A stretch of 64,000 bases of DNA from a virus (lineage: Duplodnaviria; Caudoviricetes): positions 96,001 to 160,000 of the IMG/VR virus record IMGVR_UViG_3300033463_000014. One strand, 5' to 3'. The notes under the pieces are model-generated. The model was given only the letters and a program-made list of their open reading frames with translations, was not told the DNA's origin and made no database searches. This document shows, in pieces, positions 44,060-48,657 of this stretch. The stretch's first letter is position 1, and every line of letters starts with the position of its first letter. The position numbers and the translations under genes were made by a program.

Positions 44060-47000
44060 CTATTCCCCTTTCATGATCCCAAGGTCGATCCTCGTATCGA
44101 GGAACGGCATGATCGCCTTCTCATGGGTCGCCATGATGATCTGTAGCCCCTTGTTTCTTGCTACCTCGCCAACTTTCTGCAGGAGCTCTCCAAGATGCCC
44201 GATGCTCGCATCGTCAAGATACGCAGTCGGCTCATCAAGGCTCAGCAAACCGAGTTCTCCTCCGAAGCACATGTAGATCGCCAGACGGAATGCGATCGCA
44301 AGCGCAACCTTCTGACCTCCGGACAGCAGGGACGCGTCCGGATTCGGATCAGGCATGGACCGTCCGTCGATGAATCTGCATCGGAACCCGAACCCCTCCT
44401 CCTCCGCCTCAACGACGAAAGGAGCGCAGAATTGGTCGAGGAAACTGTTGACGCAAGCCGTCAGATCCCTCATCACGTTCTGAGACATGATCCTCGGGCC
44501 TTCCTTATAGGAGAACCAGTCCCTCACGCGCTTCAGCACATCAACCTTCTCCCTTACCGCGTCTTCCACCCTCTTCTTCTCCACGAGGTCGTCGATCATT
44601 TTCCTCGTGCTCTCGATGGATTTCTCCGCAGTGTCGAGACGGCCTTTCTCTGTTGCCATGTCCCGCAGGATTCCGTTGAACGCGTCCAGGTTGGAGCGCG
44701 CTTTCTCGGTCGCCTCGCGGCACTTTTCGGAATAGTCGCCGTGTACGTCCACAGCCTTGATCCCGATGTCCGCCACGCGCCTCTCCGCCGCCTCCATGGC
44801 CTGTCTGACCATGTCGACCTGGGCCGAGTAACGCGCGACGTTGTCCCTGGCCGTCTTGGCCGCGTCCTTCGTCCTGACCGCATCATTCAGCTTGCGCCTG
44901 TTGTCGGCCAGCCTTGACTCGATCTTCGGGAGATCGTCGGGGACATTGCCCTTGTATGAGACCTCGAACGAGACCATGTCGATTACGACACCCTCGACGT
45001 TCTTGTCCTTGGCGTTCTTGAGCGCCGCTTTTGCGGCTTCCATCCTCGTCCTCGCGCGGTCTAACTTTCGCGCGCAGGCGCTTTCTTCCGCCTCGCGCTT
45101 GTCGAGGGCCATTCTGGCATCCCTCGCCTTTTCGGTCACTTCCCTGCGCTTCGCCTCCATCGCGTCAAGCTTCTCTTTAACGTGTCTGGAGATGTCTTCC
45201 TGCGTGGCCGGAGCGCCGCAAAGCGGACACGTCCCGTCACTTGACGCCTCGCGCATCATGTTGCGCAGACTGCGGGCCTCGGCCTCTGCGGCAGCCTGCT
45301 CGTTGTCGAGCCTCTTGACCTCCGCACGGTCGTCCTCAACTTTCGTCGTGTACCGCGCGAGATCGGACTCAGCCTCCCTTATGGCGGCGTCGCCCTCATT
45401 CTTTGCGCTGAGCGCCGCATCGGACAGATCCTTCAGCCTTGTGAGGAAACGGACGACATCCCCGTCCTCGTCGACGAGCTTCCGGAGCCGCTCCTCTTCC
45501 TCTTCCGAGAACGATCCGACTTCGTCAAGCTCCTTGAGCGCGCGCCCGTGCGCTTCCTGCGCGCTGTTTAGCCTGCGCGTCACGGAGACGAGCTCCTCGA
45601 CCGCGGCCTGCGCGCCGGCCAGACGGTCGACTTCCTTCTCAAGTTCCTCCTTGGTCGGGAGTTTCCGGATCGCCGCGTCATACTTACCGAGCGTTTCCCG
45701 GCAAGCTCTCGCGACGTCCTCGTGCGTGTCGAGCTGCTCCCTTGCGCGTGCGATGGCGTCGTCGAAGCCCTGAGGCTTGTCATACGCAGCTATCTCACTA
45801 CGGAGCGACTCGTAGATCTTAGTGGCGTTCCCGATACCGATGAGTCGCTGGAACGCAACCTCCCTGTTCTTAGGGTCATCGAACAGGATCGCGTCGATTC
45901 CCTTCTGAGGTACAAACACGATCTGCCTTATGAGCTCCTTGTCGAGCCCGGCCTTCTCGCGCAGGGCATCCTCTACCTTCCTCGCCTGCTTGATCGTCTC
46001 TCCGTCCACCTTCAGCGTCACGTCACCGTTGGTCTTCCTGACAATCACGAACTCAGTGTTGTTCGACCCTGCCGTGAATATCAGCTTGACCGAACCTTCC
46101 TTCTCACCCCACGTAGTGAGGTTAGCTTTCGTGAACCCAGGCTGCTCACCTGTGAGCGCGAACTGAATGGCTCCGATCAGGTTCGACTTGCCGCAGTTGT
46201 GTGTCAGATAACAATGTTCGCGTCCGATACAATATGTGTATGGTGCTTCTCGCATTCGGATGGTATAGTAAGCGGCTGCTTCCAATACCTTAATCCGTAC
46301 GCAATTTCCGAGATGCTCTTCAGGCTCAGCTTTCTCGCCGCCGGAACAGCGTTCCTCACCTCCTCCGCAAGGATCCTTTTCAGCGACACTCCCGCCACAT
46401 GGTACGGATACTTCTTCCGATTCTCCGACCACACCCTCCGAACCTCCGCAATCTCCTCCTGCGTCAGCACCTGCGGATTCGGTATTGTCACCCTGCCATG
46501 GGTTACCCCATACCACGCATTGTACTTCACGCTGCACCACTCCAGGTTCTCCGCCCTGTTGTTTGACGGATTGCAGTCGATATGGTTCACCACTGGCAAC
46601 CCAAGCGGGTTCTCCAGCCACGCTTCCGCCACGATCCTGTGCACCTTCACGGTATGCCCATCGAGCATCGTCCTTAAGTACCCATTCGGATCCCGCGCTG
46701 GCTTCATCACGGCAACTATTCTGCCGCCATACTGTCGCGTCGTCAAAAGGCGCCCCATATTGCTCACAAAGTAATTTGAGCTGTGCCCTCTGACCTGCTT
46801 CCAGCGCTCCCCAGACAAGCTGATAGAGCGGATAGAATCCATCTCCCGCGAAGAAGGGGTGGTCGTATGTGCAACACGTTTTCTCTCCATCGATTTCAAC
46901 CTCCAGCATCGGTTTCTGTTTATGATCGGGACTGGTCATAACGACACCGGAGACCGTGCTGGACGTCAACCGACCGCTCTCATCGTCAAAAGCAAGCAGC

Positions 47001-47176
47001 ACGTCTCCACTCTTAACCTCCTCTACGGGCCTGACCGTCCCGTCATACATCCTTACGGGCGTTCCCTTCGCGAGACACCCGTTCGGCCCTAAAACGGCAA
47101 TCAGGTTGCCGCTGAAGTCGACGTCAAGCTTCTTATGCTGGCGAAAGTTCGTCAGCTCAATACGCTTCAAATGCAT
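44060..47176 (-). CDS. sbcC: SbcC/Rad50-like ATPase, intein-containing
   Basis: LKRIELTNFRQH, split Walker A GPNG/CGKS, coiled coils, CPLC zinc hook, LSGGQK, LSLDEPT, ATH; start at 47176 after GGAAGGAG. Confidence 0.93.
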   Translation of the reverse strand: MHLKRIELTNFRQHKKLDVDFSGNLIAVLGPNGCLAKGTPVRMYDGTVRPVEEVKSGDVLLAFDDESGRLTSSTVSGVVMTSPDHKQKPMLEVEIDGEKTCCTYDHPFFAGDGFYPLYQLVWGALEAGQRAQLKLLCEQYGAPFDDATVWRQNSCRDEASAGSEWVLKDDARWAYREGAQDRGGSVAGEPAWVASGEPYRLQSVKQQGGEPGVVQREVQCVVWGNPWQGDNTESAGADAGGDCGGSEGVVGESEEVSVPCGGSVAEKDPCGGGEERCSGGEKAEPEEHLGNCVRIKVLEAAAYYTIRMREAPYTYCIGREHCYLTHNCGKSNLIGAIQFALTGEQPGFTKANLTTWGEKEGSVKLIFTAGSNNTEFVIVRKTNGDVTLKVDGETIKQARKVEDALREKAGLDKELIRQIVFVPQKGIDAILFDDPKNREVAFQRLIGIGNATKIYESLRSEIAAYDKPQGFDDAIARAREQLDTHEDVARACRETLGKYDAAIRKLPTKEELEKEVDRLAGAQAAVEELVSVTRRLNSAQEAHGRALKELDEVGSFSEEEEERLRKLVDEDGDVVRFLTRLKDLSDAALSAKNEGDAAIREAESDLARYTTKVEDDRAEVKRLDNEQAAAEAEARSLRNMMREASSDGTCPLCGAPATQEDISRHVKEKLDAMEAKRREVTEKARDARMALDKREAEESACARKLDRARTRMEAAKAALKNAKDKNVEGVVIDMVSFEVSYKGNVPDDLPKIESRLADNRRKLNDAVRTKDAAKTARDNVARYSAQVDMVRQAMEAAERRVADIGIKAVDVHGDYSEKCREATEKARSNLDAFNGILRDMATEKGRLDTAEKSIESTRKMIDDLVEKKRVEDAVREKVDVLKRVRDWFSYKEGPRIMSQNVMRDLTACVNSFLDQFCAPFVVEAEEEGFGFRCRFIDGRSMPDPNPDASLLSGGQKVALAIAFRLAIYMCFGGELGLLSLDEPTAYLDDASIGHLGELLQKVGEVARNKGLQIIMATHEKAIMPFLDTRIDLGIMKGE
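46196..47077 (-). mobile_element. Class 1 intein (294 aa) in the SbcC P-loop
   Basis: Block A CLAKGTPVRMYDG, block B TYDHPF, terminal YLTHN followed by Cys+1; removal restores GPNGCGKS. Confidence 0.92.
46204..46890 (-). CDS. NUMOD4-HNH homing endonuclease in an alternative frame inside the intein
   Basis: ERWKQV..NYFVSNMGR (NUMOD4), VHRIVAEAW..VNHIDCNPSNNRAENLEWCS..N (HNH); GGAGG 9 nt upstream of ATG 46890. Confidence 0.9.
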   Translation of the reverse strand: MERKRVAHTTTPSSREMDSIRSISLSGERWKQVRGHSSNYFVSNMGRLLTTRQYGGRIVAVMKPARDPNGYLRTMLDGHTVKVHRIVAEAWLENPLGLPVVNHIDCNPSNNRAENLEWCSVKYNAWYGVTHGRVTIPNPQVLTQEEIAEVRRVWSENRKKYPYHVAGVSLKRILAEEVRNAVPAARKLSLKSISEIAYGLRYWKQPLTIPSECEKHHTHIVSDANIVI

Positions 47177-47219
47177 TCTGTTCTCCTTCCTGGTCAATAC
47201 CAGACCAAGCACCATAACT

Positions 47220-47246
47220 AAAAAAACGCCCCCCTTTCGGGGGGCG
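47220..47246 (-). terminator. Rho-independent terminator
   Basis: CGCCCCC-GAAA-containing GC hairpin followed by a T-run on the minus strand. Confidence 0.7.
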
Positions 47247-48657
47247 CCGGCCTCGGGGAAACCTAGGCCTTGCTAGTTGAAAATGGACATGACCATGCGC
47301 CCGAGTCCATAGGCTGCCTTGACGGCCAGCCCTGCGATCCCGGCCACGCTTCCGGCAAGCTCCACGGCATTGTTCCCAATGCCCTTTATCGACTTGCCAA
47401 CGTCGCGCGCTGCGTAATCCATCACATTGAGAGCCTCTGCCGCGATCTCGCCGTCGTCCATCCTGAGGACCTTGTCGGAGTCCACCAGTCCGAACGTATT
47501 GGCGTACCTCCACAGCTTCGGCTTTCTCTCATGCCTTTCGCGGTTGTCCCTTCTATTCCGTCCGCGGCGCCTAGTCTCCGCGTCAGGATATCCGTTCCAA
47601 CCGCCCCAGCTGTTCAGGCTGTTCCAGTCGCTTCTGGCCATGACGGTGTTGGTCACGTTGGTAACGCTGTTGTCAGTGACGTTGTACGACACCATTCCTG
47701 CGTTTCCGCGATGACCGCACATCGCTTCCCATTTCCGTTTTCGCCTTTTCCTCTTGCACTTGCCGTTAGTATAGTTCATGGCATTTCCCCAGATGGTTCA
47801 CGCGGCACCCTCGTTAAGGGCTGTACGGACATGCCGTGCCGCGCCGCAACCGTGGGCCAAGGACGAAAGGCCCCTCTCCGGAAGCAGAATTCCGAGGGGG
47901 ATCTCCTGTCAACGCCATGAGCTTATCGTGAAGAGGAAAAATCAGGAAACGGGGGTAAGCTTGGCGCGCTCTGCGAGGTACTCCTCCCTCGTCCAGAACA
48001 TACCGAACTCCCTCCCCTCGATGATGATCACGACACCTCCGGACCCGCCGGGCTTTCCCGGTACCCCTGATCCGATGTCGTGATCGTAAACGCTCAGCAC
48101 CCTCCTTTTGCCAAGCCTGTCAGCGTCGTCCGCGCATATTTTCAATCGTTTTTTCGATGGCGCCCTTGACGGGGGCCTGGACGCGGACGAGCTGTTCGCG
48201 GAACGCATGGAGGCGATGCGCCTGAGAATGGCGCACACGGTGAGAAGGTCTGACGCGGCCTCGTCGGCCGGTCCGATGAAGAAGAATGACGAACGCGCTC
48301 CTATGTAGACAGTCTTCCCTGACTGCCTGGCGAGCTCATCCGCCAATGTCATTTTCTCCCTATCCGCCTTCTTCTCTGACATGATTACTGGATTATACCT
48401 AAATCAATGGAAGGATGCTGTCATCACTCCGAGCCATAACATCCTCCGATTTTCAACAGAATCCCGACAGCCATCTCCGCCCCTTTTCGCCCGACATTCC
48501 TGAGCTTGACCGCCTCGGACACCAGATACCAGTAGGCCATGTCCAGAGCGACATCCCTCATGTCTTCAGGCACAGACCTGACCACATCCATAGCGGACCT
48601 GGATTTTGAAGCAAGGGCCTCTACAACACACGAAATATCCATAAGACCTCCAATAGC

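Follow-up and report, generated by a model that had tools for sequence, protein, structure and literature searches.

We report a probable mobile intein whose homing endonuclease appears to be encoded by a separate gene, overprinted on the intein in another reading frame. The element lies in a 64,000-nucleotide stretch of viral DNA (hereafter the window; positions 96,001 to 160,000 of IMG/VR record IMGVR_UViG_3300033463_000014, a 181-kb virus of the Caudoviricetes with direct terminal repeats), where it interrupts a gene for an SbcC/Rad50-like SMC ATPase. Within the intein-coding DNA, the +1 frame of the same strand encodes an I-HmuI-like NUMOD4-HNH protein. The same arrangement recurs in 27 further loci with both frames free of stop codons, and substitutions among relatives follow the intein frame over the splicing domains and the HNH frame over the catalytic core. 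We consider it highly likely that the element is a non-canonical mobile intein that is spliced from the sbcC precursor, while the separate, overlapping NUMOD4-HNH gene drives its homing.

Anatomy of the interrupted sbcC gene

All features of the locus described in this section lie on the minus strand. The host open reading frame (ORF) at 44060..47215 comprises 1051 codons. Its true start is probably the ATG at 47176 (MHLKRIEL, with AGGAG upstream) and not the longest-ORF start at 47215, because an intein-less homologue on the related phage contig L021 likewise begins with MHLKRIEL. The gene for the intein precursor would then span 44060..47176; its product matches SMC_N (1.4e-17), AAA_23 and SbcC_Walker_B in Pfam as well as the SbcC-like phrog_77 (1.1e-32). 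A 33-codon N-extein (47078..47176) ends in ...AVLGPNG, the first half of the Walker A motif. It is followed by the 294-codon intein (46196..47077; CLAKG...CYLTHN, then the +1 Cys of CGKS) and by the C-extein (44060..46195), which begins CGKSNLIGAIQF with the second half of Walker A and runs to the stop codon. The intein thus interrupts the SbcC Walker A motif between GPNG and CGKS. It consists of an N-terminal splicing domain (residues 1-121, 46715..47077) that includes block B (T70-Y-D-H73, 46859..46870), a low-confidence or disordered linker rich in G, E, S, D and R (residues 122-254, 46316..46714), and a C-terminal splicing domain with blocks F/G and the final ...THN (residues 255-294, 46196..46315).

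The overprinted gene occupies 46204..46890 and has 228 codons plus a stop. Its product comprises a NUMOD4 motif (amino acids 28-76, 46663..46809), the first part of which coincides with the conserved intein-frame segment YQLxW...QLKLLCEQYG, an HNH_3 catalytic motif (amino acids 82-125, 46516..46647; VHRIVA...VNH...NRAENLEW) and a C-terminal helix-turn-helix-like region. The ATG at 46890 is preceded, at a distance of 9 nt, by a Shine-Dalgarno-like GGAGG (46900..46904) that is made by the intein codons L-E-V, and the stop codon ends at 46204, 8 nt inside the intein end. An earlier, sequence-only reading of the stretch had described the Walker A split by a 294-codon intein, the complete 228-residue HNH ORF in the shifted frame, the GGAGG before its ATG and the position of its stop, and all of these stand at the coordinates given above. 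The featureless intein middle that it described is also present, but it measures about 133 residues (122-254) and not ~200.

The layout recurs in relatives, with both frames open beyond chance

We collected relatives by scanning IMG/VR with the HNH protein and with the intein-frame alignment, and by searching a large protein collection. These searches yielded 27 further loci with the same architecture, giving 28 with the window (23 of them non-identical), with G+C contents from 39% to 55%. Every one of the 28 combines a homologous intein of 275-296 codons, uninterrupted by stops, with a +1 ORF of 188-240 codons that carries the NUMOD4 and HNH motifs. Among clusters formed at 50% identity from 1.84 billion proteins, ~55-60 representatives match the whole 285-position intein-frame profile. 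Six short proteins (P0079, P0080, P0126, P0130, P0133 and P0156; 249-354 residues) cover just two-thirds of this profile, at either its N-terminal or its C-terminal end; they could be split or truncated forms, or they could have been cut at contig ends. The profile scans also returned L050-L060, which we set aside as ordinary mini-inteins or bacterial intein-like (BIL) repeats without an overlapping ORF.

Among 50,697 GenBank phage records, a DNA similarity search with the locus gave no match, and a protein search returned only distant free-standing HNH genes with less than 60% identity. An intein-profile search of genome contigs found only two unrelated mini-Hint domains, in a metagenome-assembled genome of Bacteroidia, and no cellular or prophage copy of the element.

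To quantify how far the open frames exceed expectation, the HNH protein was held fixed while synonymous codons were resampled from local extein usage, in an exact dynamic-programming calculation. Over the HNH gene of the window, 7.3 stops are expected in the intein frame, and the probability that this frame is open is 3.3e-4; among the relatives the corresponding values range from 5e-3 to 1e-13. The converse calculation, for an open HNH frame given the intein, yields P = 1.8e-2 for the window and values down to 9e-8 elsewhere. When six free-standing HNH relatives were inspected, the corresponding frame proved to be open over just 4-45 codons. The dual open frames that the sequence-only reading had noted in the window are thus more than a chance occurrence, and the absence of stops in both frames extends to the homologous inteins of all 28 loci.

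The +1 frame encodes an I-HmuI-like NUMOD4-HNH protein with its own putative start codon

In the +1 ORF, Pfam detects NUMOD4 (E 7.5e-7, 29.7 bits, cut-off 23.4) and HNH_3 (E 2.9e-7, 30.4 bits, cut-off 24.8), and PHROGs assigns it to phrog_59, HNH endonuclease (4.5e-39). When the HNH family profile was compared with the PDB, the sole match was I-HmuI (1U3E; E 4.4e-26 over 165 positions), spanning NUMOD4, HNH and the C-terminal helix-turn-helix. In 27 sequences, residues H84, R85, N102, H103, N111 and N115 and the ensuing LEW show complete or at least 90% conservation, and they can be aligned to I-HmuI. The AlphaFold2 (AF2) model of the protein has a mean predicted local distance difference test score (pLDDT) of 81.6, which is low only in the first ~20 and the last 16 residues, that is, in the parts overlapping intein blocks B and F/G. 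A Foldseek search with this model returned 1u3e_M as the only match at E <= 0.001 (E 4.5e-7, probability 1.0, TM-scores 0.40/0.51). The NUMOD4-HNH assignment first made from the sequence alone is upheld by matches above the Pfam cut-offs, and by analogy with I-HmuI the product would be a nicking or cleaving endonuclease.

I-HmuI is a nicking enzyme encoded by a group I intron of Bacillus phage SPO1, and it shares with the window protein, at ~29% identity, the order of NUMOD4 beta motif, HNH core and C-terminal helix-turn-helix. I-HmuI begins at NUMOD4, whereas in the window protein the overlapping intein blocks impose 26 extra residues at the N terminus and a tail of 16.

Several features suggest that translation of the HNH gene is initiated independently, at its own ATG. 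In each of the 28 loci this codon lies 88-211 nt into the intein, and in all but one of them it is found at block B or within ~15 codons upstream of it, often right after an in-frame stop. GGAG(G) is kept 9-10 nt upstream of the ATG in all five SbcC alleles. A scan for internal promoters gave no convincing candidate upstream of the HNH start; the sole promoter-like site lies downstream, and the count equals the shuffle expectation.

Alternatively, the HNH protein could arise by +1 frameshifting from the sbcC/intein frame, as a fusion of the N-extein, the N-terminal intein part and HNH, or its translation could be coupled in another way. Most members outside the SbcC group have no recognizable Shine-Dalgarno sequence before the ATG, and the intein frame determines the first 26 residues of the HNH protein, which are predicted to be disordered, as such a fusion might lead one to expect. 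However, the ATG has a confined position within the intein throughout the family, and in L009, L010, L027 and L034 it is the first codon after an in-frame stop, which leaves at most ~27 codons for a shift site. Moreover, no conserved slippery motif was noticed, and the SbcC subgroup keeps its GGAG(G) at the correct spacing. We regard frameshifting or coupling as unlikely.

An empty site and discordant host genes point to mobility

The 163-kb phage contig L021 contains an intein-less sbcC gene whose C-extein is 63% identical to that of the window and whose Walker A coding sequence, GGGCCGAACGGG|TGCGGCAAGTCC (GPNGCGKS), is uninterrupted. The window insert is therefore a precise 882-bp insertion. 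On this contig the intein-less sbcC, a natural empty site, is followed by a gene for an SbcD-like metallophosphatase (L021:3902-6226).

The same intein is present in four further SbcC alleles (L061-L064), where the HNH ORF has 227-228 codons and an identical stop position. Between the window and L062 or L063, the C-exteins are only 33-35% identical, while the inteins share 64% and the HNH proteins 71% identity. Between the window and L064, by contrast, the extein is 79% and the intein 64% identical. These pairwise comparisons suggest that the intein and its host gene have had different histories, which would fit homing. The family as a whole occurs in at least six Walker A host contexts, comprising SbcC, an SF2/ResIII helicase, a RecD/PIF1-like helicase, a MoxR-like AAA ATPase and at least four terminase Walker A types. 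The insertion is always immediately 5' of the (C/S/T)(A)GK(S/T) codons. With an empty allele, discordant identities and six host-gene contexts, the element is both patchily distributed and out of step with its hosts.

Constraint alternates between the two frames along the overlap

For pairs of relatives, we tallied the substitutions at each codon position of the intein frame (given as 1/2/3). In the exteins (908/664/1392), the N-terminal splicing domain (125/84/275) and the C-terminal splicing domain (37/24/148), substitutions peak at intein position 3. In the HNH core overlap (714/287/248), the peak moves to intein position 1, which is HNH position 3. The SbcC subgroup, consisting of the window and L061-L064, shows the same switch, with 141/99/318 in the N-terminal splicing domain versus 546/357/275 in the core. 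In this subgroup, the HNH frame is 60-69% identical over the core (amino acids 63-214) and the intein-frame linker 41-53%; identity over the whole HNH protein is 68-88%.

Column entropy calculated from 21 sequences places the boundaries. Up to and including block B (HNH residues 1 to ~25), the sequence is governed by the intein frame, and from the catalytic core onward by the HNH frame. Between them lie ~25-35 codons that are near-invariant at all three positions and read YQLxW...QLKLLCEQYG in the intein and SNYFVSNMG in NUMOD4. Constraint is thus shared along the overlap, with the intein frame prevailing over blocks B and F/G, the HNH frame over the core, and both over ~35 codons. The per-frame substitution pattern, with its switch to HNH third positions in the core, supports the view that the HNH ORF is under purifying selection in its own frame.

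A reduced member of the family is found in a terminase gene at L018:3102-3593, on the same contig as L047. This 164-codon mini-intein has lost the HNH gene save for an 83-codon remnant. It retains the NUMOD4-overlapping segment (YVPLYQLVWG...QLLCEQYG), which is exactly the triple-constrained middle segment.

The existence of deletion derivatives of this kind, and an HNH identity that reaches only 60-69% in the core of the SbcC subgroup and 68-88% over the whole protein, might indicate that the HNH ORF is a decaying relic. In effect, the element would then be a long-spacer mini-intein that is passed on vertically or moves by some other route. We find this improbable, since all 28 loci have the ORF at full length with invariant catalytic residues, substitutions fall preferentially on the third positions of HNH codons, the HNH frame is better conserved than the intein-frame linker, and the intein and extein histories disagree.

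The intein frame has the fold and residues of a splicing domain

Pfam reports nothing above threshold for the intein frame, only a sub-threshold match to the Hint N-terminal domain. In the AF2 model of this frame, residues 1-121 and 255-294 have pLDDT values above 90, and residues 122-254 score about 30. Compared with 27 solved inteins and Hint domains, the confident parts align with VIA-align Z-scores of 12-16 over 119-133 residues, and the top matches include the BIL domain 2LWY (16.1), NpuDnaB (15.8) and Mtu RecA (15.8). In agreement, the intein profile matches BIL, gp41-1, PI-SceI, DnaE and DnaX inteins. Two predicted helices of the intein (residues 84-121) overlap the NUMOD4 of the other frame.

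The residues expected to carry out splicing are in place as well. The N-terminal nucleophile C1 is invariant in 22 aligned family members. The TxxH motif of block B is present, with Y71-D72-H73 invariant and T70 nearly so. The terminal Asn (N294) never varies, and at the +1 extein position each of the 28 loci has C, S or T. The window also has the penultimate His (...THN|CGKS), although this residue varies among relatives. Together, the Hint fold, C1, TxxH, the terminal HN, the +1 Cys and the precise insertion relative to the empty allele support the identification of the insert as an intein, as initially proposed for 46196-47077, and suggest that the sbcC precursor undergoes protein splicing.

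If the insert instead remained unspliced in the protein as a harmless surface loop, as supposed for the out-of-frame HNH insertion ShiLan of phage methylases, the sub-threshold Pfam match and the atypical block F of the window subgroup (see below) would be readily accommodated. However, the loop would comprise 294 residues within the P-loop, between G and (C/S/T)GK(S/T), and from established knowledge of P-loop NTPases it would be expected to abolish nucleotide binding. The complete Hint fold of the model, with Z-scores up to 16, and the conservation of C1, TxxH, the terminal N and the +1 nucleophile also speak against an unspliced loop, which we consider very improbable.

Finally, the window comes from a metagenome-assembled virus record, and two compensating indels introduced by assembly or sequencing might have pushed an ordinary in-frame HNH intein out of register; the two shifts would have to lie in short intervals, one separating block B from NUMOD4 and the other ahead of block F. 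Comparison with relatives effectively refutes such an artefact. The identical offset, with two open frames, is shared by 27 other independently assembled loci from different samples with G+C contents from 39% to 55%. An artefact would require no openness of the intein frame over the HNH core, yet this frame is stop-free everywhere (P 3e-4 to 1e-13 each), and no in-frame version was found among the loci recovered.

Proposed mode of action and origin

Under our preferred reading of a mobile intein with a separate endonuclease gene, the sbcC precursor would be translated straight through the 294-residue intein. Residues 1-121 and 255-294 would form a complete Hint domain, with the 133-residue spacer, which has no fold prediction, at the usual endonuclease insertion point. 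Standard class 1 splicing (C1, T70xxH73, H293-N294 and the +1 Cys) would rebuild Walker A as GPNG-CGKS. The HNH gene would be translated separately, from its own ATG behind the GGAGG in the codons just before block B. Judged by analogy with I-HmuI, the enzyme would most likely nick or cut intein-less alleles at the Walker-A-coding DNA (...GGN|WSNGGNAARWC...) during mixed infection, and repair of the break would copy the whole unit of intein and endonuclease into the cut allele, completing homing. The central proposal of the sequence-only reading, that the endonuclease of the intein has an ORF to itself, in another frame and equipped with an ATG and a Shine-Dalgarno sequence, has gained support from the conservation of this ORF and from the signs of purifying selection on it.

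Several observations weigh against this reading. The substitution-periodicity signal is weaker in the SbcC subfamily than in the terminase groups. Block F reads MREAPYTY in the window, L061, L062 and L002 (MRKAPYTY in L064, MREAPYAY in L063), whereas most relatives have E-D-N-H-N-Y, and the window subgroup thus lacks the common Asp/His pair. This pair is common in inteins but not defining. Because block F is atypical, splicing competence of the window subgroup is assumed, from overall conservation and from the essential Walker A position. The confidence of the helices modeled at intein residues 84-121 could reflect alignment conservation imposed by NUMOD4 and not a real fold. Lastly, no clear Shine-Dalgarno motif is seen upstream of the HNH ATG outside the SbcC subfamily, and the mechanism of HNH initiation may therefore not be uniform.

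A possible origin is the invasion of a mini-intein by an HNH gene; no in-frame or ancestral form of the HNH intein was found among the loci recovered. The HNH start of the window lies ~26 codons upstream of the point where free-standing relatives such as I-HmuI begin, which suggests that the present start was recruited from intein sequence and not simply brought along with the gene. An open alternative frame is far likelier in G+C-rich DNA (P 5e-3 at 54% G+C versus 1e-10 at 43%), so an origin in a G+C-rich genome with subsequent spread is plausible. A more far-reaching proposition, which we advance tentatively and hold to be less likely than not, is that the loci represent one large unpublished family. 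In this family, an I-HmuI-like nicking gene and an intein would share their DNA, with ~35 codons encoding two folded segments at once (NUMOD4 in frame +1 and two intein helices in frame 0), and the unit would hop among unrelated P-loop NTPase genes because its endonuclease recognizes Walker-A-coding DNA.

Relation to known inteins with separate endonucleases

Out-of-frame intein endonucleases have been described before, in 1998 and again in 2025-26, and the caution of the sequence-only reading about novelty was well placed. As cited in later papers, an out-of-frame endonuclease was first proposed for the dnaX intein (Gorbalenya, Nucleic Acids Research 1998, 26:1741). Inteins of actinobacteriophages with the endonuclease in a separate frame or on the opposite strand include an endonuclease VII-like enzyme in frame 3, antisense LAGLIDADG and Vsr-like enzymes, and an in-frame HNH; the same study proposed switching between P-loop host genes and suggested that a free-standing endonuclease gene had given rise to such inteins by invasion (Gosselin, Arsenault and Gogarten, bioRxiv 10.1101/2025.01.02.630785). 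Like the window element, the actinophage inteins are contiguous and presumed to splice, have a foldless in-frame middle and an overlapping endonuclease ORF, and count the terminase large subunit among their hosts. They differ in the enzyme, which in the window is an I-HmuI-like NUMOD4-HNH protein in the +1 frame; among the actinophage inteins the same-strand, out-of-frame enzyme is endonuclease VII-like and the HNH is in frame. In addition, the family described here occurs in phages other than the isolated actinophages, and among its host genes are those for SbcC, helicases of two types and an AAA ATPase. Its HNH ORF starts inside block B and, in the SbcC subgroup, ends inside blocks F/G.

A cyanobacterial dnaX intein with a LAGLIDADG endonuclease in the +2 frame (Phillips, DeSimone and Gogarten, bioRxiv 10.64898/2026.09.14.751524) resembles the window element in its P-loop ATPase host, its disordered in-frame middle, its overlapping ORF with a putative Shine-Dalgarno sequence, its frame-dependent purifying selection and the coexistence of mini-intein and empty alleles. 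It differs from the window family in having a LAGLIDADG and not an HNH enzyme, another frame offset, a cellular and not a phage host, and one host gene instead of many. ShiLan (published 2025) is an out-of-frame HNH gene in a non-splicing insertion in phage methylases. It too hides an HNH in the other frame of a stop-free host gene, places the stop in the last bases of the insertion and has a patchy distribution. In contrast to the window HNH, which is flanked by complete Hint domains, ShiLan shows no recognizable splicing domains and presumably persists as a loop. The HNH subtypes also differ, being zinc-finger-flanked in ShiLan and NUMOD4/I-HmuI-like in the window.

Fractured genes, in which split inteins are parted by a free-standing endonuclease gene, with a DNA-repair example in sbcD (Dassa et al., Nucleic Acids Research 2009, PMC2677866), share with the window the overlap between the endonuclease end and the downstream intein part. 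However, their host is broken into two ORFs and the inteins splice in trans, whereas the host frame of the window is continuous. One terminase copy in our collection, L012:1633-3634 (on the same contig as L031), has a net +1 frameshift. Its N-extein/N-intein frame stops at 2454, and its HNH frame lacks its own stop and continues into the C-terminal intein block and the C-extein, forming a 601-codon ORF. Either an error in sequencing has produced this arrangement or the copy is naturally split, with HNH fused to the C-terminal intein part; it may be an intermediate of the fractured-gene kind.

Full-text literature searches retrieved no out-of-frame NUMOD4-HNH inside an intein and no SbcC intein of this type. 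What is new here is the endonuclease class, the frame and the host genes; the underlying principle has already been described. The family adds a well-supported and widespread HNH example to the few inteins with a separate, overlapping endonuclease gene. It identifies overprinting as a stable architecture and not a one-off, which has survived transfer over at least six host genes and a wide range of G+C contents. Its breadth, its alternating dual-frame constraint and its host-gene switching, more than any new principle, will mainly be of interest to specialists. The family offers a natural system for studying how two proteins alternate in dictating one sequence and how homing elements switch hosts through shared motif-coding sequence, and some of its members may be intermediates that link contiguous, mini and split inteins. 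On the practical side, the HNH ORF escapes gene callers, which treat the precursor as a single long protein, and phage annotation pipelines therefore under-count homing endonucleases.

Further observations at the sbcC locus

On the plus strand opposite sbcC (44195-46774), there are several long antisense ORFs (240, 310 and 350 codons). They look like composition-driven, stop-poor frames and not like genes, and open-frame length alone therefore says little in this genome. Directly upstream of the sbcC start, at 47225-47248 on the minus strand, lies a strong terminator-like hairpin with a 10-bp G+C-rich stem followed by a T run. Because this hairpin adjoins the start of the gene, sbcC is probably either the first gene of a transcription unit or preceded by a terminator that allows read-through.

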